The translations under genes were made by a program, and so were the position numbers. Shown piece after piece: positions 36,960-53,233 of a stretch of 64,000 nt of DNA. The first letter of the stretch is position 1, and each line of letters opens with the position of its first letter. This DNA comes from a bacterium. GTDB taxonomy: Bacteria > Bacillota > Clostridia > Oscillospirales > CAG-272. The stretch covers positions 2,836-66,835 of the forward strand of contig SFZB01000002.1 of NCBI GenBank assembly GCA_004558975.1. Reading direction: 5' to 3'. Below the pieces are notes generated by a model. The model was not told the origin of the DNA. It was given only the letters and a program-made list of their open reading frames with translations, and did no database searches.

Positions 36960-38436
36960 ATGAAACGGTTTCGGTTTTGGTTGATGGCGGCTCTGGTCAT
37001 GATTTTTGCGGTATTCGCCGCATCGTGTGACGGGGCTTCCGGAGGGACGGCGGGGGAGACGGAGCACCAGCACAACCTATGAATTGCGCGGGGGCGGCTC
37101 CGGCTGCGCTGTACTCGCTGTACCGAAGACCTATCAGGGGTACCCGGTGGTCAGCATCGGGGAGAAGGCTTTCTATGAGCGGAATATCCGGGAAGTCATT
37201 CTGCACGAAGGGATCCAGACGATCGGCGGTGCCGCATTTGCACGCTGCGAGGCACTCGAAAAGGTCACGATCCCGGAGGGGGTGACTTCGATCGGCGGAA
37301 ATGCTTTTAACCGATGCCGCCGATTGCAGGAGATTACGATCCCGGGGAGCGTCCGCACGATCGTCGCCGCGGCTTTCTCGTCCTGTGACCGACTCGTCAC
37401 GATTACGATCGGCGACGGCGTGCAGGAGATCGGGGAATCCGCTTTTTCCGGTTGCGGTACTCTCGGAGCGATTGAAGATCTGACACTGCCCGCAAGCACG
37501 ACCGTGATCGGCGAAGGCTCTTTTGCAGGGGCGAACATTGTGAGCCTGACCGTAAACGGCAGCGCGGGATGCTCCATCAGCGAGCAGGCTTTCAGTGGGT
37601 GTGCATTACTGAAAACCGTGGTCATCGGCGATGGTATTGCAAGCATCGGGGAGTCTGCATTCGACTTTTGCTCCGCGCTGGAAACGGTCGTCATCGGGAA
37701 CGGTGTGGAGAACATAGGAAAATGGGCATTTGCAAAGTCCGGGGTACAAACCGTTGCGTTCAGTGACACGGTGCAGATCATTGAAGCAAATGCCTTTTCG
37801 GGGTGCAGCCGTCTGCAATCCGTTACATTGCCAGATGGCCTCCGGACGATCGGGGAAGATGCGTTCAACGGCTGCGTGCATCTGAACTCCGTCACGCTTG
37901 GGCGTAATTTGCAGGTGATCGGCGCGTACGCATTCTCCATCGAATCGACGCTCCTGGAGATCGTGAATCGCTCGGCACTGCCGCTGGCAGCGGGAAGTAA
38001 AGACTACGGCGGAATCGCGAAGAATGCCCGCACGATACGCACCGAGGCGGGCGAGAGACAGTATTTTGCGACCACGGAGGACGGGTATCGCTTCTATGAA
38101 GATGATGAAGTCTCCTATCTGCTGCAATACGTGGGCGACGAGACGGAACTCATCCTGCCGGAGTCTTCACCAAGCGGCAGAGCGTACAGTATATACAGGT
38201 GTGCATTCTATGAGGATGACCGGATCACAGCGGTCACGATCCCCGCGTGTGTGCGCCGGATTGATCCGCTTGTGTTCACGAGATGCACCTCTCTCACCTC
38301 GCTGGCATTTGCCTGCACGGACGGTTGGTATGAGGTCTATCGGGGGGAGCACAGCGCGATAGATGCCTCCGATCCTGCAAAGAACGCAAGCCGGGTCGAA
38401 CTGGAATACTATCTGAAAGCATGGGTCCGCGAGTAA
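36960..38436 (+). pseudogene. BspA-type leucine-rich-repeat lipoprotein, interrupted by a +1 frameshift between the signal peptide and the body
   Basis: ATG 36960 (SD ggagga) encodes MKRFRFWLMAALVMIFAVFAASCDG... (lipobox) and stops at 37080. The LRR body (TSTTYELRGGG..PVVSIGEKAF...) runs in the +1 frame to 38436 with no credible start of its own. Confidence 0.7.
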
Positions 38437-38553: not shown

Positions 38554-38595
38554 GCGTGCGCTGTAAATGCCCCAAAAGTTTTTGAAAGAGGGGTG

Positions 38596-38631
38596 CGGGG
38601 AGGAAACCTTTTGCAAAAAGTTTCCTCCCCG
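38596..38631 (-). terminator. Hairpin downstream of the dut-fusion gene
   Basis: cggggaggaaac / gtttcctccccg 12-bp stem. The minus-strand tail is only weakly U-rich. Confidence 0.4.
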
Positions 38632-38684
38632 CTTAGTGCGCGCGCGTATTTTAGGTACTGAGAGCGCGTATTTATATGTACTTA

Positions 38685-40160
38685 TCAGGACAGTTTGCCG
38701 TAGAGGTCGCGATAGAGGAGGACTGCCTCTTTGAGGCCGCCGCGGGCGGCGGCGGCGAGCATGGCTTTCGCCGCGTCGGGTTCCTTCGGGACACCGCCGC
38801 GCCCGGAGGCGAGGTAGGTGGCGTACTGCTTCATGCCGTAGAGGTCACCGCGCTTCGCGGCGGTCTCGTACCACTTCGCGGCGAGAATGTCGCCGCCGTT
38901 GGTACCTGCGTTATGATACAGGTCGGCGAGGTAGGTCATCGCGCGCACGAGCCCCTGCTCGGCGGCGCGGGTGAGCCACATAATGCCCTTTTCGAGGTCG
39001 TTCTCCACGCCGTTCATGATCTGGGAATAGTGGCGTCCGAGCGTGAACTGCGCCGGGGCATAGCCCTGTTCCGCGGCGGCGGCATACCATTTCGCCGCCT
39101 CCGGCTTATCGGGGCGGATCCCGTTCCCGTCAAAATAGCACACGCCGAGGTGGAACTGCGCCGGGGCGAAGCCCGCCTCTGCGGCGCGGCGGTAGCAACC
39201 GACGGCACGCACGGCGTCCAACTGGACGCCGACCGCGAAACTGAAGCATTGACCGAGGGCGTTCGCCGCCGGGGCAAAGCCGAGTTCGGAGGCACGGTAG
39301 TAGAGTTCCACCGCGCGGTGGTCGTCTTTCTCCACGCCGAGCCCGTCGACGAGCAGATTGCCGAGCAACAGCATCGCGTCCGGCTCCTCGCGTCCGACCT
39401 CTACCTGCAGTCCCTCCAACACCTCGGAAAGCGCGGCAAGTCCGGCTTCACGATCCTGCGGGATTCCCGCAATCTCGTCACCGATGCAGGAGAGATACGC
39501 CAGTCTCGCGCGGCAGAGAACGTCGCCCGCGTCCGCCGCCGCGAGGAGTTTCGCGACCGCCTCCCGACGGTCGAAAGGCGCGCCCATGCCATGGTAGTAG
39601 GCGAGCGCGTCCGCGCGCAACGCCGCAACGTCCGGCGCCGCCTGTGCGGCAGTTGCCGCCGCGTCAGAGGGGGCGTCTGTCATCGCGGCGGCACCTGTAG
39701 GCGCCGCGCCCGTGAGCGTCTCCGTCGTCCCGGTGGAGCCGAATCCGCCGGCACCGCGCTGGGTATCGGAGAGTTCATCTGTCTCGCAGAATTCGACATG
39801 GAGGAACGGCGCCACGACCAGTTGGGCGATACGCTCACCCACGTCAACGGTCGCCGGGGCTGTGCCGTGGTTATGGAGCGCGACCATGACCTCGCCGCGG
39901 TAGTCGGGGTCGATAACGCCGACTTTGTTCGCCGGGGCGAGCCCGCGCTTACAGGAAAGCCCGCTCCGCGGGTAGACCAGTCCTGCGTATCCCTCCGGCA
40001 GTTCCAGAGAAAGCCCGGTGTGTACGAACACCGTCTCTCCCGGGGCAATCGTCAGCGGCGCGTCCAAAAGCGCATAAAGGTCGGCGCCCGCGGCACCCGG
40101 GGTGCCGTAAGTGGGCAGGACAGCGTGCGGATCCAGTTTCTTGATATTTACCTGTACCAT
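38685..40160 (-). CDS. dut: dUTP diphosphatase fused to a C-terminal array of Sel1-like (SLR/TPR-family) repeats
   Basis: The first ~145 aa (N-terminal) carry the trimeric Dut motifs (AGADLY, PRSGL, GVIDPDYRGEV, RGAGGFGSTG). An Ala-rich linker follows. Then repeated A..G...A...LG.CY..G.G...D...A..WY units (e.g. AAEAGFAPAQFHLGVCYFDGNGI). Confidence 0.85.
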   Translation of the reverse strand: MVQVNIKKLDPHAVLPTYGTPGAAGADLYALLDAPLTIAPGETVFVHTGLSLELPEGYAGLVYPRSGLSCKRGLAPANKVGVIDPDYRGEVMVALHNHGTAPATVDVGERIAQLVVAPFLHVEFCETDELSDTQRGAGGFGSTGTTETLTGAAPTGAAAMTDAPSDAAATAAQAAPDVAALRADALAYYHGMGAPFDRREAVAKLLAAADAGDVLCRARLAYLSCIGDEIAGIPQDREAGLAALSEVLEGLQVEVGREEPDAMLLLGNLLVDGLGVEKDDHRAVELYYRASELGFAPAANALGQCFSFAVGVQLDAVRAVGCYRRAAEAGFAPAQFHLGVCYFDGNGIRPDKPEAAKWYAAAAEQGYAPAQFTLGRHYSQIMNGVENDLEKGIMWLTRAAEQGLVRAMTYLADLYHNAGTNGGDILAAKWYETAAKRGDLYGMKQYATYLASGRGGVPKEPDAAKAMLAAAARGGLKEAVLLYRDLYGKLS

Positions 40161-40196
40161 GTTGTGCTCCTCGTTTTGATTCGTCCTTGGGAGGGC

Positions 40197-43037
40197 TCAC
40201 GCGAGCCCGAGTTTCTGCCGTAAATACTGCCCGGTGAAGGAGGCGGGCACCTCCGCGACTTCCTCCGGTGTGCCGCATGCCACCAGCGTGCCGCCGCCGT
40301 CGCCCCCCTCAGGGCCAAGGTCAATGAGATAGTCCGCCGTCTTGATGAGGTCGAGATTGTGCTCGATGACGATCACCGTATTGCCGCTGTCCACCAGGCG
40401 GTTCAGGATATCGATGAGGTGCGCGACGTCCGCCGTGTGCAGACCCGTCGTCGGCTCGTCGAGAATATACACCGTTTTGCCGGTGGGGCGGCGGGACAGT
40501 TCCGTCGCCAGTTTGACGCGCTGTGCTTCGCCGCCGGAGAGCGTAGTGGAGGACTGTCCCAGTTTGACGTAGCCGAGACCCACGTCAAAGAGCGTCTGCA
40601 CCTTGCGCTTGATCTGCGGGATCCCGTCAAAGAAGGTCAGCGCCTCCTCGACGGTCATTTCCAACACCTCGTAGATGTTCTTGCCCTTGTAATGCACGTC
40701 GAGGGTATCGCGGTTATAGCGCATGCCGTTACAGACGTCGCACTTGACGTACACGTCGGGGAGGAAGTGCATTTCGATACACTTCACGCCGTCGCCCTGG
40801 CACGCTTCGCATCGTCCGCCGCGGATATTGAAGGAGAATCTCCCCGCGCCGTAGGCACGCGCTTTCGCGTCCGGGGTCTTGGCGAACAGCTCGCGGATGT
40901 CGTTGAACAGCCCGGTGTAGGTCGCCGGATTCGAGCGCGGGGTGCGTCCGATCGGGCTCTGGTCGATATGAATGACTTTATCGAGGTACTCGAGCCCCTC
41001 CACGCCGTCGCACTTGCCGGGGTAGGTGATCGCGCCGTTGAGGTCGCGGGCGAGCGTGCGTTCCAGACAGGTATTGATGAGCGAGGATTTCCCCGACCCG
41101 GAGACGCCCGTCACGCAGACGAGCCGCCCGAGCGGGATCTCGACCGAAAGGTTCTTGAGGTTGTTCTCCCGTGCGCCGCGAATCCACAGCGATTTGCCGT
41201 TCCCCGGGCGGCGGGTCTTCGGAACTGCGATACTTTTGCGCCCCGAGAGGTAGTCGCCCGTGAGCGACTTCCTGCAGGCGGCGACCTCTTTCGGCGTCCC
41301 CGCAACGACGACCTCGCCGCCGTGAATCCCGGCGCCGGGTCCGATATCGACGATATAGTCCGCCGCCATCATGGTTTCTTCGTCATGTTCGACGACGATG
41401 ACGGTGTTCCCGAGGTCGCGCAGACTGCACAGCGTGCGGATCAGCTTTCCGTTATCGCGCTGGTGCAGACCGATGCTCGGTTCGTCGAGGATATACAGCA
41501 CGCCGACAAGCGCCGAGCCGATCTGCGTCGCGAGGCGGATGCGCTGTGCTTCGCCGCCCGAGAGCGTCCCCGCCTTACGCGACAGGGTCAGGTAGTCGAG
41601 CCCGACCGAGGATAGGAACTTCAGGCGCTTGCGAATCTCGACGATGATGTCGTGCGCAATCTTCTCGCGCGAGTCGTCGAAATGCAGATTGTCGAAAAAG
41701 GGCACGAGTTCCCCGACCGACAGGCGGCAGAGGCGGTCGATATTCAGCCCGCCGACCGTGACGGCGAGGACGGTATCGTTCAGCCGCGCGCCGTGACAGA
41801 CGGGGCAGGGCGCGTCCTCGATGAACTGCTGATAGTAGTCGCCGAAGGCGCCCGCCTGCGCCATACGGCGTTCGATCATGGGGATAATGCCCTCAAAGCG
41901 AGTGACCGAGTGCTTCGGCGTGTTCCCGAAATAGCGGATACATTCATACGTTTCGTCGCCGGTACCGTAAAGGAGCGCCTGCCGTTGTTCCTGCGTCAGG
42001 TCGCGGATCGGCGTATCGATCGAGAACCCGTGCCGCGCGCCGACCTCGATAACGAGCGGCCCCGTGTAGGAGTGTTCGTCCATGGTCTTGAACCCGTTCG
42101 CGGCGAGACCTCCCTGTCTTAGCGACAGTTCCGGGTGGGGAATGAGTTTCTCTTCCGAAATCACCTGCATCTCGCCGAGCCCCGCACAGCGCGGGCAGGC
42201 GCAGAGCGGGTTGTTGAACGAGAACATGGCGGGTTCCAGCGCGCCGAAGGAAATCTGATGCTCTTCACACGCGTATTTCTGCGAGAACTCGAGTTCTTCC
42301 GTCACCTCGCCCTCCCGCGAGAGCAGGGCGATATGCACGCGCCCGTCCGCGAGGGACAGCGCGTTCTCCACCGATTCTCCGAGGCGGGGGCGCAGGTCGG
42401 GACGGAGAATCAGACGGTCGATGACGATGTCAATGGAGTGCTTTTTGTTCTTGTCGAGCGTGATCTCTTCGGAGAGGTCGTAGAGGCTCCCGTCCACGCG
42501 TGCGCGGACGTAACCCGCGCGCTTGGCGTCGGCAAAAACCTTTTCGTGCATACCCTTTTGTGCGCGCACCACGGGGGCGAGTACCATGAAGCGGCTGCCC
42601 TCCGGGAGCGCGAGAATGCGGTCGAGGATCTGGTCGAGCGTCTGCTGGGTGATCTCCCGCCCGCAGACCGGGCAGTGGGGCGTCCCGACGCGCGCGTAGA
42701 GCAGACGCAGATAGTCGTAGATTTCCGTGACCGTCCCGACTGTGGAGCGCGGGTTCTTGGAGGTCGTTTTCTGCTCAATGGAAATCGCTGGAGAAAGCCC
42801 CTCGATGAGATCCACGTCCGGCTTGTCCATCTGTCCGAGGAACTGGCGGGCGTAGGACGAGAGCGACTCGACGAAGCGGCGATGCCCCTCGGCGTAGATT
42901 GTCTCGAATGCGAGCGTCGATTTCCCGGAGCCCGAAAGTCCCGTGAATACGACCAGTTTGTCGCGCGGGATATCGAGATTGATATTTTTCAGGTTGTTGG
43001 TGCGCGCGCCGCGCACGATCAGAAGATTTTTTGACAT
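40197..43037 (-). CDS. uvrA: Excinuclease ABC subunit A
   Basis: 946 aa with two ABC modules ([18 protein letters not shown]), zinc fingers CPVCGREI and CEACQGDG. Confidence 0.98.
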
Positions 43038-43039
43038 AC

Positions 43040-45028
43040 TTATTTTGCGTCCCGTATGGTTTTGATCTGGTCACGCAGGTACGCCGCGCGCTCGAAGTCG
43101 AGCCGCTTTGCCGCGTCCTGCATTTCTTTGGTGAGCCGCCGCACGAGTGCCTCGCGCTCGGTCGCCGAGAGTTTCTTCTTGCGCTTGCCGCTCTCGAGCA
43201 GCGCTTCGTCTGCTTCGGCGTGCTTCTTGCCGATTTCGATGACGTCGCGCACCGCCTTGGAGACGGATTTCGGTGTGATGCCGTGCGCCTCGTTGTACGC
43301 CTGCTGGATCCCGCGGCGGCGGTTGGTCTCGTCGATGGCGGCGCGCATCGAGCGCGTGACCGTATCGGCGTACATGATGACGCGCCCGTTGACATTCCGC
43401 GCCGCGCGCCCGATGGTCTGAATCAGCGATGTCTCGGTACGGAGGAACCCCTCCTTGTCCGCGTCGAGAATGGCGACGAGCGAGACCTCGGGGATGTCCA
43501 GCCCCTCGCGGAGCAGGTTGATCCCGACGAGGACGTCGAAGCGGTCGAGCCGCAGGTCGCGGATGATCTCCATGCGTTCAATGGTCTCGACGTTGTGGTG
43601 GATATACTTGACCTTGATGCCCTGCGTCGCGAGGTAGTCGGTCAAATCCTCCGCCATCTTGGTCGTCAGCGTGGTGACAAGCACTTTTTCGCCCCGGGCG
43701 GTCACTTCCCGGATCTCGCCGATGAGGTCATCGACCTGTCCCGCGATCGGGCGGACGAAGATCTCGGGGTCGACAAGCCCGGTCGGGCGGATGATCTGCT
43801 CGACGGTGCGTTCGCTGTGTTCTTTTTCGTAGGCGGCGGGCGTCGCGGAGACGAACACCGTCTGTCCGAGTTTTTTCTCGAACTCTTCAAAGTAGAGCGG
43901 GCGGTTGTCATACGCGGAGGGCAGGCGGAACCCGTAGTCGACGAGGTTCTTCTTCCGGGCGGTATCGCCGCCGGACATGCCGCGCACCTGCGGGATCATA
44001 ACGTGCGACTCGTCGATGAAGGTCAGAAAGTCGCGCGGGAAGTAGTCGAGCAGGGTATAGGGGGTGGAGCCGGCAGTGCGCCCCGAGAGGACGCGCGAAT
44101 AGTTCTCGACGCCGGAGCAGAAGCCCACCTCCCGGAGCATCTCGAGGTCGTATTTGGTGCGCTCTTCAATGCGCTGGGCTTCGAGGAGCATATTCTTGCT
44201 CTTGAAGTAGGCGACACGCTCGTGCATCTCGCGCTCGATCTCTTCGAGTGCCCCCTCGCGTTTCTCCTCCGAGACGGCGTAGTGCGTCGCCGGGAAGATC
44301 GCAGAGAAGGAGAGCACCTGGAGGAGCTCCCCTGTGACGGTGTTCACCTCGGTCAGTCGGTCGATCTCGTCTCCGAAAAATTCGACGCGGATCGCGCGGT
44401 CGGTCGAAGCGGCGGGGAAGATCTCCACCGTGTCGCCGCGCACGCGGAATTTCCCGCGGCGGAAGTCGATGTCGTTACGCTCATATCCGATGGCGACGAG
44501 ACGCCGCACCAGCCGCTCCCGCGTGAGGGTCATGCCGGGGCGCAGGGAAATGAGCAGATCCTGATACTCGGTCGGGTCGCCGAGCGAATAGATGCAGGAG
44601 ACGGAGGCGACAATGATGACGTCCCGCCGCTCAAAGAGCGCGGAGGTCGCGCTGTGACGCAGCTTGTCGATCTCGTCGTTGATCATCGCGTCCTTCTCAA
44701 TGTACATATCCTTGCCCGGAATGTACGCCTCGGGCTGATAATAGTCGTAGTAGGACACGAAGTAGTCGACCGAGTTCTCGGGGAAGAAGGCGCGGAGCTC
44801 GGAGCAGATCTGCGCGGCAAGCGTCTTGTTCGGCTCGAGAATCAGCGCAGGGCGACCGCAGGCGGCGATGACGTTCGCCATCGTGAAGGTCTTGCCCGAC
44901 CCGGTGACGCCGAGCAGGGTCTGGAACGGGAGCCCCTGTTTAATACCGTCGACCAGTCCCGCGATCGCTTCCGGCTGATCGCCGGTCGGCGCGAACGGAC
45001 TGACCAGATGAAACGCGGCTTCTTTCAT
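43040..45028 (-). CDS. uvrB: Excinuclease ABC subunit B
   Basis: [12 protein letters not shown] helicase motif I and a C-terminal UVR domain ([13 protein letters not shown]). Start re-picked at ATG 45028 (SD aaaggag). Confidence 0.98.
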
Positions 45029-45346
45029 AGCGGCTCCTTTCCCCCGCGGGCGTGCCCGCGAACATTTGACAATCGATAGATAATATACAATAGTATAACA
45101 CAAAAAATATGAAATGAAAAGTGGCGGGGGAAAAGTATTCGCGCGTTTTTCATGCGCCGCCCATATCGGAGTCCAAGGCGCGGCGCGCGCATCGCGGCTT
45201 TTTCGGTCGGACGGGGAGATGCCCGGTTCTCTCGGCACCGCGCCGACGAAAAACGACAAAAAACGGGCTGTGATTTTTTACGCGGACTGTATAAAATCGC
45301 CCGGAGGGGAAAAAATAGGCTTACATTACCGAAAGGAACTTGAGAA

Positions 45347-46027
45347 ATGGAAAACAAAAACCAGCAGCAAAGCAAGAAAAATCGCTCGAAAGCCAACCGT
45401 TACCTCTACATCGCGGCGGCGGCGGTCCTGTGCCTCGGCGCGATCCTGACCGGCGTACTCCTCTCCGTGCGGAACCGTGAGACGCCGGTCAACCCCGACA
45501 ATGTCCCTGCCGTGACGACGCCGGACGACGATCCGAAGGAACCCGATATCGACGTCACCAAGATCCTGCCCGAGTTCGTCGCGCCTGCGGTCGGTCTCGT
45601 CACCCAGTCGCATGACCTCGACGTGCTCGTGTTCTCCAAGACGGAGAATCTGTGGCGCGTACACCGCGGCATCGACATCTCCTGCAAGGCGGGTGCGGCG
45701 GTCATGGCGGCGGCAGACGGGAAGGTCTCCGAGATCCTCGACGATCCCTTCTTCGGCAAGACGGTCAAGATCACCCATAACGGCGAGGGCGTGACCATCT
45801 ACTCCAACCTCGCGGCGGAACTCGCCGAAGGACTGGAGGTCGGCAAAGAAGTCAAGTGCGGACAGGTCATCGGCTGTGTCGGTGAGACGGCGTCCCGCGA
45901 GATCGCGGAAGAGCCGCATCTGCACTTCGAGATGACGGTCGCCGGGAAGAGCGTCGACCCCATGACCTATATCAGCGCGGAATCCCGCGCGGCAAGCCTT
46001 ACGAAGGACACGGCTTACGAGGGCTGA
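45347..46027 (+). CDS. M23-family metallopeptidase (membrane-anchored)
   Basis: N-terminal TM anchor, HRGIDIS and HLHFEM zinc-ligand motifs. Confidence 0.85.
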   Translation: MENKNQQQSKKNRSKANRYLYIAAAAVLCLGAILTGVLLSVRNRETPVNPDNVPAVTTPDDDPKEPDIDVTKILPEFVAPAVGLVTQSHDLDVLVFSKTENLWRVHRGIDISCKAGAAVMAAADGKVSEILDDPFFGKTVKITHNGEGVTIYSNLAAELAEGLEVGKEVKCGQVIGCVGETASREIAEEPHLHFEMTVAGKSVDPMTYISAESRAASLTKDTAYEG

Positions 46028-46051
46028 TACGGGAACGGTTTTCCCACCTGT

Positions 46052-46086
46052 GGCGCGGTGACGGCTCGTCACCGCGCCCTTTCTCC
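46052..46086 (+). terminator. Terminator after the M23 peptidase gene
   Basis: ggcgcggtgac / gtcaccgcgcc 11-bp stem, then ctttctcc (weak U tract). Confidence 0.55.
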
Positions 46087-46231
46087 GTCGTGAAGGTTCT
46101 CCTCCGTCACCGTGATCTTTCACCGGCGTTCGCCCTCCACCCGATGCTGCCGCCGTCAGGTCGCGGGCGGTATCGGCGGTGTCACGGGACGCCGGACATC
46201 CGCATCGGGCGCCGACGGCGCCCGGACGGGC

Positions 46232-46260
46232 TTGCTTTTTGGGACGGGATATGCTAAAAT
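46232..46260 (+). promoter_or_regulatory. Promoter of hom
   Basis: TTGCTT, 17 nt, TAAAAT. Confidence 0.5.
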
Positions 46261-46325
46261 GACATAAAATTGCCATTCGGTACGAAATAAAACCAAAAAC
46301 GCCCCACCGGGGCGGGGAGTCCCAT

Positions 46326-47537
46326 ATGAAACAGATTGCTATTTTAGGGCTCGGTGTCGTCGGGCGGGGGACCGCCGACCTGTTCGCCGAGAACGCCGCG
46401 GGCATCGCGAAACGGATCGGGGAGGACGTGCGCGTCAAATACGCGCTTGACATCCGGGAGATGCCGGATTCTCCTTACGCTTCACTGATCGTCCACTCCA
46501 TCGACGTCATTCTCGGCGATCCGGAGGTGACGGTCGTCGCGGAGGTCATGGGCGGACTGCACCCCGCGTATGAGTACACGAAGGCTTGTCTCACAGCCGG
46601 GAAGAGCGTCGTGAGTTCCAACAAGGAGCTGGTCGCGACCTACGGCGCGGAGCTGCTCGCGCTCGCGGCGGAGCGGGGCGTGTATTACCTTTTTGAAGCG
46701 TCGACCGGCGGGGCAATCCCCGTCATCTCGCCGCTCGTGACCGACCTCGCGGCGAACGAAGTGACCGGCATCGCCGGAATCTTAAACGGCACGACCAACT
46801 ATATTCTCACGCGGATGTTCCGCGCCGGGGCGACCTTCGAGGGGGCGCTCACCGAGGCACAGCAGAAGGGGTACGCCGAGCGAAATCCCGCGGCGGATAT
46901 TGAGGGGATCGACGCCTGCCGGAAGATCTGTATTCTCGCCGCCGGGGCGACCGGGATCCTGCCGGACGCCGCCCGCGTGCATACCGAGGGAATCACCGCC
47001 ATCCGTCAGCGCGACGTGCAGACGGCGGAGGCGAACGGCTATACCGTCAAACTGCTCGGGCGTCTCGATATCCGCCCGTGGGGCACGTTCGTCCTTGTGG
47101 CGCCCTTCCTCGTGCCCGTGACCTCGCCGCTCAGCGGCGTGGAGGACGTGTTCAACGCCGTCCTCGTGCGGTGCAACTATGCGGGGGATATCATGTTCTA
47201 CGGTCGCGGCGCGGGGTCGCACCCGACCGCCTCCGCCGTCGCGGCGGATATTCTGTCCGTTTTGCGCGGTGACGCCAAACGGCAGACGTGGACCGTGGGC
47301 GGCGCCGATTACCCGACCGACTTCCGCCTGTTCCGCGCGCGCCACTATCTCGCGCTCACCGGGATCGACCGCAACGCCGCGCGCGTGGTGTGGTCGGACG
47401 CCGAAATCCTCGAGGCGGCAGGGGACGAGCTGACGCTCCTGACGCCGGAGATTTCCGAGCAGGAACTCACGGACGATATTGCGCGGCTGACTCCGCTCGG
47501 GGCGCACGTGCAGGCGCATCTGCGCGTCTGCGACTGA
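46326..47537 (+). CDS. hom: Homoserine dehydrogenase
   Basis: ILGLGVVGRG Rossmann motif, NKELVA, GILNGTTNYIL, and a C-terminal ACT-like region. Confidence 0.93.
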   Translation: MKQIAILGLGVVGRGTADLFAENAAGIAKRIGEDVRVKYALDIREMPDSPYASLIVHSIDVILGDPEVTVVAEVMGGLHPAYEYTKACLTAGKSVVSSNKELVATYGAELLALAAERGVYYLFEASTGGAIPVISPLVTDLAANEVTGIAGILNGTTNYILTRMFRAGATFEGALTEAQQKGYAERNPAADIEGIDACRKICILAAGATGILPDAARVHTEGITAIRQRDVQTAEANGYTVKLLGRLDIRPWGTFVLVAPFLVPVTSPLSGVEDVFNAVLVRCNYAGDIMFYGRGAGSHPTASAVAADILSVLRGDAKRQTWTVGGADYPTDFRLFRARHYLALTGIDRNAARVVWSDAEILEAAGDELTLLTPEISEQELTDDIARLTPLGAHVQAHLRVCD

Positions 47538-51789: not shown

Positions 51790-51885
51790 ATTGAATATGG
51801 AACAGGGGTGCCGCAAGGCTGAGACGGATGCAAATCCGAACTCTCGTACCTGATACGGGTCATACCGTCGTAGGAAGTTGCATTT
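51790..51885 (+). promoter_or_regulatory. TPP (THI-box) riboswitch aptamer
   Basis: GGGGTGCc..CTGAGA...ACCTGATacGGGTcATACCGTCGTAGGAA matches the THI-element core. It sits upstream of a thiamine transporter. Boundaries are approximate. Confidence 0.85.
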
Positions 51886-51902
51886 CACTTGATATGAAAT
51901 TG

Positions 51903-51939
51903 ATTGCCCCACGAGGTTCTGTGGGGCAATTTTATTTTT
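51903..51939 (+). terminator. Riboswitch expression-platform terminator
   Basis: attgccccac / gtggggcaat 10-bp stem, then TTTaTTTTT, 12 nt before the thiT ATG. Confidence 0.8.
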
Positions 51940-51950
51940 GGAGGTGTGTC

Positions 51951-52805
51951 ATGGAACACACGAAAACCCGCAAACTGGTCGAGAGCGCCATTATGATTGC
52001 GCTCGCCACCGTCCTCAGTCTTCTGAAACTCGCGGATCTGCCTTACGGCGGGTCGGTCACGCTCGCGTCCATGCTCCCGATTGCGCTCATTGCGTACCGG
52101 AACGGTCTCGGCTGGGGACTGGGCAGCGGTCTTGCCTACGGCGTTTTGCAGCAGCTGCTCGGGCTGAAAACGCTGACGTACGTGACGGGTGCAGGCTCTG
52201 TCATCGCCGTCATTCTCCTCGACTATATCATCGCGTTCACCGTCATGGGGCTCGCCGGGATCTTCCGCCGCACACCGATGCCGCAGGCGGCGTCGCTCAC
52301 CGTCGGCGTGGTCTTTTCCTGCGCCCTCCGCTACATCTGCCACGTCATTTCCGGCGCCACCGTTTGGGCAGGGCTCTCGATCCCGACGACGGCGGTACTC
52401 GCCTATTCGCTGGCGTACAACGCAACCTACATGATCCCCGAAACGATCGTGACCGCGCTTGCCGCGTTCTACATCGCGTCGCTCATCGACTTCCGTGAAG
52501 TGCGGATCCGCCGCATGACCCGTGAGAAGTTCGGCGTCGGCGGGTATCTGCTCCTCGCCGGTTCGCTCCTCATGCTTGCCGGTGCCATCTATGATATCGT
52601 GGCGCTGTTCTCGCATATGCAGGATCCCGACAGCGGTACGTTCAATATCACGCTGATCGGTACGAGCGGCATCTGGCTCCCCGTCGTCATTGTGACCGCC
52701 GCCGTCGTTCTGGTGTTTGCGGTTCTCCTTATCGTCGGTCTGCGTCTGCAGGCGAAGGAGCGGGCGGGTGCCGGCGATGCCGATACCCTTGACAAGCAGG
52801 CATAA
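51951..52805 (+). CDS. thiT: Thiamine transporter ThiT (ECF S-component-like) with a C-terminal two-TM extension of about 100 aa
   Basis: KLVESAIMIALATVLSLLKLADLPYGGSVTLASMLPI... resembles ThiT. Riboswitch context. 284 aa. Confidence 0.82.
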   Translation: MEHTKTRKLVESAIMIALATVLSLLKLADLPYGGSVTLASMLPIALIAYRNGLGWGLGSGLAYGVLQQLLGLKTLTYVTGAGSVIAVILLDYIIAFTVMGLAGIFRRTPMPQAASLTVGVVFSCALRYICHVISGATVWAGLSIPTTAVLAYSLAYNATYMIPETIVTALAAFYIASLIDFREVRIRRMTREKFGVGGYLLLAGSLLMLAGAIYDIVALFSHMQDPDSGTFNITLIGTSGIWLPVVIVTAAVVLVFAVLLIVGLRLQAKERAGAGDADTLDKQA

Positions 52806-52817
52806 AACGGATATAAT

Positions 52818-53203
52818 CACAGGCGGAACCAGACGGTGCAGTCGCGCGGTATCATGCCGAAAGGTCGTACCGTGAGGAAAGTCCGGGCTTCATAGGGAAG
52901 GATAACGGATAACGTCCGCCGAGGGCAACCTCCGGGAGAGTGCAACAGAGATATACCGCCGCGCAAGCGGTAAGGGTGGAAAGGCGAGGTAAGAGCTCAC
53001 CACGCTCTGTGGTAACACAGAGGGTCTGTAAACCCTATCCGAAGCAACGCCTACGGGAGAGCGGAAACGCTACGGTGCCCGCCGGAATCCTGTTGGCGGC
53101 AGGGGCGCTATGCGCCCTGAACATATCGGTAACGGTATGTGAAGATAGATGACTGCGGTTCGCGCAAGCGTTCACAGAACCCGGCTTACAAGTCTGATTC
53201 CTC
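52818..53203 (+). ncRNA. rnpB: RNase P RNA, bacterial type A
   Basis: GAGGAAAGTCCGGGC (P4 5' strand, 52874-52888), GGTAAGGGTGGAAAGGCGAGGTAAGAGCTCACC, and ACAGAACCCGGCTTAC (P4 3' strand, 53174-53189). The ends are approximate. Confidence 0.9.
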
Positions 53204-53233
53204 TTTTGCTTTTTCGCGGCGTCTGCCGCCGTG

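Follow-up and report, generated by a model that had tools for sequence, protein, structure and literature searches.

The 64,000-nucleotide stretch analysed here, referred to below as the window, covers positions 2,836 to 66,835 of contig SFZB01000002.1 from a CAG-272 bacterium (Clostridia, Oscillospirales) and carries on its minus strand a gene, called here dut::SLR, whose product joins a dUTPase (Dut) to an array of Sel1-like repeats (SLR). The open reading frame (ORF) list and the translation place this gene at 38685..40160 (-), from an ATG at 40160 to a TGA stop at 38687..38685, and give a protein of 491 amino acids (aa). The dUTPase domain with motifs I-V spans aa 1-144 (39729..40160 (-)), as supported by the NF001862 profile, structures of the Protein Data Bank (PDB), Foldseek, the family alignment and the ratio of nonsynonymous to synonymous substitution rates (dN/dS); the RGAGGFGSTG arm of motif V is found at its end (aa 135-144, 39729..39758 (-)). 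It is followed by a disordered, acidic linker rich in Ala, Thr and Pro (aa 145-177, 39630..39728 (-)), recognised by its low predicted local distance difference test (pLDDT) scores, its variable length and its dN/dS, and by a solenoid of about eight alpha/alpha Sel1-like repeats (aa 178-491, 38688..39629 (-)), supported by Pfam, AlphaFold2 and Foldseek, with its best-conserved core at aa 261-420. Linker and solenoid together extend the protein by 347 aa past motif V. An earlier note, made from the letters of the sequence, had described a dUTPase joined through a linker to Sel1-like repeats; this description holds with exact coordinates, on the minus strand and with Pfam and NCBIfam matches to both halves, and the fusion of a complete dUTPase to an SLR array is confirmed as real. 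It should be noted that a 515-aa ORF on the opposite strand (38676..40223 (+)) spans the entire gene; it is a high-GC shadow ORF and not a gene, the G+C content of the window being about 60-64%.

Upstream of dut::SLR lie uvrA (946 aa, 40197..43037 (-)), which scored 1474 bits with NF001503 against a cut-off of 1147, and uvrB (662 aa, 43040..45028 (-)), which scored 1055 bits with the NCBIfam equivalog NF003673. The mechanically called uvrB ORF (43040..45259) was over-extended to a TTG at 45259: the NF003673 match starts at its residue 83, a visible ribosome-binding site precedes the ATG at 45028, the UvrB proteins of relatives measure 659-660 aa, and this ATG is the likely start. Both UvrA and UvrB of the window are of ordinary length and domain content. 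The sequence, read directly, leaves a gap of 36 nt between uvrA and dut::SLR (40161..40196 (-)), in which a Shine-Dalgarno sequence, GAGGAG (40172..40167), stands 6 nt ahead of the ATG at 40160 and in which a scan detected no terminator-like site. Sequence and scan thus bear out the proposed arrangement, in which a third gene follows uvrA at a distance of 36 nt, brings a Shine-Dalgarno sequence of its own and is not cut off from uvrA by a terminator. A consensus scan further revealed a candidate operon promoter of the sigma-70-like type, TTTTCA-17-TATACT with an extended -10 TG (45092..45120 (-)), which lies upstream of the corrected uvrB start and inside the over-extended ORF. On the other side, 3' of the dut::SLR stop, a strong GC-rich hairpin of 17 bp (38595..38632 (-)) is a candidate terminator for a uvrB-uvrA-dut::SLR transcript; its RNA fold has an energy of -50.8 kcal/mol (z = -5.8 versus shuffled sequences), but it has an imperfect U-tract and is absent from the sites listed by the simple terminator scan. 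A search for LexA/Cheo boxes (GAAC-N4-GTTC, at most one mismatch) yielded 16 matches where about 33 are expected by chance, none of them in the uvrB promoter region, and SOS control of uvrB-uvrA-dut::SLR found no support in this negative search.

The enzyme half matches the Pfam dUTPase family PF00692 over aa 13-144 (E = 5.8e-32), and exceeds the cut-offs of the NCBIfam dut equivalog NF001862 (169.4 bits, cut-off 103) and of TIGR00576 (166.7 bits, cut-off 102.55). The NF001862 alignment runs end to end, from aa 2-145 of the protein to positions 6-149 of the 150 of the model, so that the domain is without internal insertion. Motifs I-V, among them motif III with its catalytic Asp and the P-loop-like motif V, are legible in the translation as AAGADL, PRSG, GVIDPDYRGE, RIAQL and RGAGGFGSTG, and their residues are nearly all invariant in an alignment of 26 family members (alignment A1). 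The complete trimeric-type dUTPase with five motifs, RGAGGFGSTG included, which had been recognised in the earlier note, is therefore upheld by translation, profile and alignment. Among PDB sequences the best match is the Aquifex aeolicus dUTPase 8y1q (E = 1.4e-41, 51% identity), followed by the E. coli, human and M. tuberculosis dUTPases, and Foldseek gave target TM-scores of about 0.8 against trimeric dUTPases. Compared with canonical homotrimeric Duts (E. coli 1dud/1euw, A. aeolicus 8y1q), the domain is thus the same from end to end with the same five motifs; however, canonical bacterial Duts end a few residues past motif V, where Dut-SLR continues for its additional 347 aa. The protein did not reach the dCTP deaminase threshold (TIGR02274, 35.6 bits versus a cut-off of 92.8). 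By homology, Dut-SLR would be expected to assemble into a homotrimer, of which the monomer model contains only the matching beta-barrel, and to act as a dUTP-specific pyrophosphatase (EC 3.6.1.23). No second dut was detected by tblastn within the 64-kb window, and dut::SLR is presumably the sole dut of the genome.

Whether the C-terminal half would score as Sel1 in profile searches had been set down as decisive for the proposal, and it does: PF08238 matched it in four stretches with 113.1 bits (cut-off 30.7, E = 4.1e-33). The AlphaFold2 monomer model of the protein, computed with the 26-sequence family alignment as input, places a beta-barrel at aa 1-126, a disordered segment comprising the catalytic arm and the linker at aa 134-173 (pLDDT < 50) and 17 helices, that is about eight alpha/alpha repeats as in a right-handed solenoid, at aa 178-487 (pLDDT > 90). 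The top Foldseek matches of the SLR half are all SLR structures (6ok3, 4bwr, 8sxq, 6deh and 1ouv, each with probability 1.0), and sequence identity to SLR proteins of the PDB is 24-32%. The two halves match separately, as Foldseek and phmmer found no PDB chain covering both. When the SLR was used alone as query, the SLRs of the fusion family that includes the window gene (the long family, see below) scored at least 377 bits, the best non-fusion SLR protein reached 179 bits with at most 41% identity, and no stand-alone orthologue of the window SLR was detected. Since bit scores fall so sharply outside the fusion family, the sequence comparison indicates that the SLR is a dedicated, conserved domain rather than a generic appendage. 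In the family alignment, the middle repeats contain invariant residues that are not part of the repeat consensus (GQC, APAQFHLGVCYF, AAEQGYAPAQFTLGxHYxQxMNGVEN and LADxYH), which look like a conserved binding surface. The SLR of the window has an isoelectric point (pI) of 5.4 and a net charge of -7, its linker has a net charge of -4, and SLR plus linker are acidic over both fusion families (pI about 5, with values of 4.5-6.5, and net charge -7 to -23). Because of this acidity, direct DNA binding is disfavoured and a protein ligand favoured. Binding of a protein or peptide by the SLR is a putative function, supported indirectly by strong purifying selection on the core repeats and by an acidic surface.

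Linkers of between 4 and 67 aa occur in the long family, and in 9 of the 26 members the linker measures only 4-9 aa, so that the SLR starts within this distance of motif V; where it comprises four residues, the catalytic arm is the sole flexible connection between the domains. No fixed interdomain packing is predicted in the monomer, contacts made only in the trimer being invisible to such a model. A fixed docking of the SLR on Dut was also sought with the protein P0023, which has a 4-aa linker, and was not retained: the predicted template modelling score (pTM) of its monomer model was still 0.64, the same as for the window protein, and its arm was still disordered.

Selection on the three parts was compared by the Nei-Gojobori method between the window gene and eight relatives. 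dN/dS was 0.05-0.13 in the dUTPase domain, 0.03-0.18 in the whole SLR and 0.00-0.16 in SLR aa 261-420, a core that, between the closest sequences, is under the same degree of constraint as the enzyme, whereas the linker is relaxed (0.3-0.6). Strong purifying selection acts on both domains. With a linker of anything between 4 and 67 aa beside a conserved SLR, these data favour a tethered module over a rigid interface. Over the final 71 codons (38685..38897 (-)) pairwise dS is two- to threefold below that of the rest of the gene. A hidden element was considered in this segment and rejected: synonymous codon identity among nine sequences rises only mildly (0.59 versus about 0.50), the G+C content at third codon positions is 0.83-0.93, and the low dS is probably due to codon bias.

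The distribution of the architecture was established by a search of 5.8 billion proteins, clustered at 90% identity, with precomputed dUTPase and Sel1 domains. More than 110 clusters (about 115) combine dUTPase and Sel1 in a continuous frame, in NCBI, ENA, JGI and Logan assemblies. The long family, to which the window gene belongs, comprises about 33 clusters of 456-526 aa with 54-97% identity to the window protein, and the short family about 85 clusters of about 366-419 aa with 35-41% identity overall and 56-62% in the dUTPase domain. A reciprocal search from a short-family member recovered the same two groups and no third. The named records are metagenome-assembled genomes of gut Eubacteriales, Clostridia and Oscillospiraceae, and as far as seen the fusion is confined to uncultured gut Clostridia. 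These proteins are recorded simply as "dUTP diphosphatase", a label that conceals two-thirds of the polypeptide. One relative (L008, JAQYLJ010000067.1) has two NCBI records, a 479-aa "dUTP diphosphatase" (MDY6185150.1) and a 228-aa "tetratricopeptide repeat protein" (MDD6981661.1); the latter covers the C-terminal part alone, an annotation inconsistency that hides the fusion. Another locus (L011, CAVDSZ010000001.1, 317 kb) has a uvrA 99% and a dut::SLR 95% identical to those of the window, which is Clostridia-like with 62% G+C, and belongs to a bin titled "Akkermansia muciniphila", probably a mislabel or a contamination. The architecture had not been recognised in the earlier note, and in agreement with this, a dUTPase fused to Sel1-like or tetratricopeptide repeats (TPR) was not described in any paper reached by full-text literature searches, nor does such a fusion appear in a review from 2025 that treats the forms of dUTPase and their roles outside catalysis (PMC12524310). 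The fusion is an undescribed yet database-visible variant of a well-known enzyme.

To place the two families, an exhaustive phmmer search was run with the dUTPase domain against 1.84 billion cluster representatives, and a bootstrapped neighbour-joining tree was built from 129 dUTPase domains over 144 columns. Stand-alone Duts were found at 60-64% identity to the dUTPase domain of the window protein, equally close as the short-family fusions. In the tree the long family is monophyletic with a bootstrap value of 88% and the short family with 100%, whereas the union of both receives 3%; in addition, the long and short SLR arrays resemble generic SLR proteins at least as much as they resemble each other. 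Since the families do not group in the dUTPase tree and their SLR arrays are not mutually closer, the comparison, made by neighbour joining over 144 columns, leans towards two independent fusions, or one very old fusion followed by repeat turnover. The closest stand-alone dut (P0240) was available on contigs of 1-2 kb, with no informative neighbours. Other fusions were found among the close matches (P0333, P0371, P0359, P0114, P0117 and P0234-P0239), namely dUTPase-Maf, dUTPase-GNAT, RNase H-dUTPase and tandem dUTPases, and the existence of dUTPase-Maf and dUTPase-GNAT proteins indicates that a C-terminal extension is compatible with the dUTPase fold. P0114 and P0117 were considered as further C-terminal extensions and rejected, as both are tandem multi-dUTPases; single-chain double and triple dUTPases do occur.

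The order uvrB-uvrA-dut::SLR was present in all nine long-family loci examined as well as in the window, with gaps of 14-76 nt, and it reaches the deepest branches of that family (56-58% identity). By contrast, the short-family genes have an LCP-family or GGDEF gene on their upstream side and EcsC or PfkB on their downstream side, and no uvr genes were found near the fusion in the short-family loci examined. The uvrB-uvrA context put forward for this gene is therefore general within the long family but does not apply to the fusion as such. Because the position next to uvrBA is conserved in the long family only, the link to repair is lineage-specific, and the nucleotide-excision-repair neighbourhood is a clade-specific synteny and no property of the fusion architecture. 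An ancestral synteny shared through PfkB was also considered and discarded, as the PfkB proteins of the window and of the short family share 23% identity over 48 aa and are not orthologous. Regarding the short-family neighbours, an EcsC-family gene follows dut::SLR in L014 (7001..9011, with a gap of 4 nt) and in L015 (7001..9178), and in L002 the end of an LCP (LytR_cpsA_psr) gene is 28 nt ahead of dut::SLR; EcsC and LCP are envelope-related and not DNA-related.

Trimeric Duts of staphylococcal phages derepress pathogenicity islands (SaPI) by binding the repressor Stl, a second role that involves the motif V region and for which these enzymes use an internal variable insertion, motif VI. The analogy with phage Dut and Stl that had been suggested for the window protein turned out to be loose: Dut-SLR has no motif VI-type insertion, its addition is a C-terminal solenoid, and it is encoded by a chromosomal core gene. 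The SLR half has the same solenoid fold and SLR consensus as the adaptors of O. formigenes (6ok3), E. coli (EsiB/c5321, 4bwr), Legionella (LpnE, 6deh, and LceB, 8sxq) and H. pylori (HcpC, 1ouv). These adaptors are known as stand-alone and mostly secreted or periplasmic proteins, whereas the SLR of Dut-SLR is the C-terminal domain of a cytoplasmic enzyme and belongs to a sequence subfamily found only fused to dUTPase. Other dUTPase fusions (retroviral protease/RT-dUTPase polyproteins, dUTPase-Maf, dUTPase-GNAT and RNase H-dUTPase) show that partners are tolerated at either terminus; there, however, the dUTPase is joined to enzymes that act in nucleotide or nucleic-acid metabolism, and in Dut-SLR the partner is a non-catalytic scaffold for protein interaction. 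The nearest parallel in concept is offered by mycobacterial Dut, in which a non-catalytic role requires a genus-specific loop beside the C-terminal arm (PMC13309787; reviewed in PMC12524310), and which binds the helicase-nuclease AdnAB in a manner dependent on the conformation of the arm and on this loop (PMC13309787). Both are chromosomal Duts with a lineage-specific addition by the C-terminal arm, in mycobacteria one that serves, independently of catalysis, a protein interaction with the DNA repair machinery; the mycobacterial addition is a loop of 5 residues and that of Dut-SLR a repeat domain of 300 aa, so that the logic is shared without homology.

The architecture and its recurrence, the intact motifs, the purifying selection on both domains, the relaxed constraint and variable length of the linker and the operon-like layout are best accommodated by a catalytically normal, housekeeping homotrimeric Dut that would carry three flexibly tethered, acidic SLR arms and bind a protein partner with them. 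We hold this reading to have a little better than an even chance of being right. In such a protein aa 1-144 would hydrolyse dUTP to dUMP and pyrophosphate in the usual way, at active sites formed at the subunit interfaces, with the motif V arm closing on the substrate. The trimer would display three mobile SLR arms through its flexible acidic linkers; these arms could bind a putative protein or peptide partner with avidity, and dUTPase activity would thereby be placed beside the partner, or the partner brought to Dut. Co-transcription with uvrB-uvrA would mean that enzyme and scaffold are made alongside the damage sensors of nucleotide excision repair. It is speculative that this partner belongs to repair or replication, and recruitment of Dut to a repair or replication complex, as imagined in the earlier note, is a possibility. 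Several points weigh against this reading of a tethered housekeeping enzyme. The partner of the SLR is putative, and the neighbourhoods of the two fusion families differ, so that context designates no consistent partner. Trimer formation and activity are predicted from homology alone. With linkers of 4-9 aa the SLR hangs on the catalytic arm and could interfere with catalysis or regulate it. If the genome has another dut, the dut::SLR copy may be specialised instead of housekeeping. Finally, most of the bacterial SLR proteins that have been characterised are secreted or reside in the periplasm, and a role as cytoplasmic adaptor would be an extrapolation from them.

In a different explanation, which we consider unlikely, the SLR would dock on the Dut trimer or on the motif V arm of its own chain and either gate catalysis, by autoinhibition or by activation, or act as a switch for the dUTP level, its binding groove being exposed or hidden with the closure of the arm by dUTP. 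In those 9 of 26 long-family members in which the SLR begins 4-9 residues past motif V, closure of the arm must drag the SLR along, and the SLR core is conserved like the enzyme. Nucleotide state and arm conformation are also reported to modulate the partner interactions of Dut, in mycobacteria and with Stl (PMC13309787), and the logic would be analogous to that proposed for phage Dut signalling. On the other hand, a linker of 4-67 aa that evolves almost freely is hard to fit with a precise allosteric geometry, and the AlphaFold2 models, which are of monomers only, gave a pTM of 0.64 in both cases with arm and linker below a pLDDT of 50. Dedicated coupling to repair, in which the SLR would specifically bind UvrA, UvrB or another protein of DNA repair or replication, dUTP would be cleared at the site of repair synthesis and the position beside uvrBA would mirror a functional complex, appears rather unlikely as well: the conserved order with short gaps and no terminator in the nine long-family loci speaks for it, as does the precedent of a Dut that binds a repair enzyme (PMC13309787), but the short-family fusions lie away from uvr genes, no LexA-type box is present upstream of uvrB, UvrA and UvrB are ordinary in length and domains, and the synteny may be the mere inherited gene order of one clade. 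Equally doubtful in our view is a broader proposal, according to which Dut-SLR would represent a new, "scaffolded" class of dUTPase that arose twice independently in gut Clostridia and whose three SLR arms would, in the lineage of the window, link the UvrAB repair apparatus to dUTP sanitation or to the catalytic arm in its dUTP-bound form; if true, Dut-SLR would be a hard-wired form of the moonlighting between Dut and partners that is debated for phage and mycobacterial Duts.

Two further explanations depart from a housekeeping role or from the reality of the gene. dut::SLR might encode an accessory Dut, either an anti-phage or anti-mobile-element protein with the SLR as sensor or a released, host-interacting SLR protein. 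In many systems SLR and TPR arrays do act as sensors or bind partners, SLRs fused to TIR, trypsin-like and ADP-ribosyltransferase domains were found among the matches, and the SLR proteins 6ok3, 4bwr and 1ouv of gut bacteria interact with the host. This explanation is nevertheless very unlikely, as the window protein matched none of the PADLOC families, the locus has the stability of a core locus and is free of mobile-element genes, the catalytic motifs are strictly conserved, and the protein has no signal peptide, its N-terminus being the first beta-strand of the dUTPase. That a dut and an SLR gene were joined by a sequencing or assembly frameshift might be suggested by the relative for which an NCBI annotation holds only the 228-aa repeat protein from the C-terminal part. 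However, with over 110 clusters in a continuous frame, an intact fusion at the loci of nine relatives and no stand-alone SLR orthologue, the chance of such an artefact is negligible; the earlier note had named it as an outcome fatal to its proposal, and recurrence in independent assemblies rules it out.

Non-catalytic interactions of dUTPases, such as those of phage Dut with Stl, of the essential mycobacterial loop and of Dut with AdnAB, are increasingly suspected. Such interactions are weak and under debate. In Dut-SLR, Dut is naturally joined to a dedicated, presumably protein-binding solenoid in a fusion that is conserved and under strong selection, and this provides a tractable handle on the question, the ligand of the SLR being a candidate physiological partner of Dut, and the variation in linker length is a natural experiment on coupling to the catalytic arm. 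The immediate impact is modest, as the hosts are uncultured gut Clostridia and the SLR function is putative; interest would grow with the finding that the SLR binds a component of repair or replication, or with confirmation that the fusions arose convergently.

Regarding the surroundings of the operon, a gene for a BspA-type leucine-rich-repeat protein (37006..38436 (+), LRR_5, 242 bits) is convergent with dut::SLR, the 17-bp hairpin lying between the two. L006 has this gene, and in L001, L012 and L013 it is missing from the same position; because only one of these four loci has it, the region downstream of the operon is variable. On the other side, a Peptidase_M23 gene (45347..46027 (+), 226 aa) is divergent from uvrB, and the apparent conservation of a 375-aa ORF without Pfam match on the opposite strand (45326..46453 (-)) is the shadow of this gene. 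Further away, the window contains a bacterial class A RNase P RNA (52826..53204 (+), 247 bits) and a thiamine pyrophosphate (TPP) riboswitch (51794..51893 (+), 64.7 bits); as the listed start of the ORF at 51828..52805 falls inside the riboswitch, its true start must lie further downstream.

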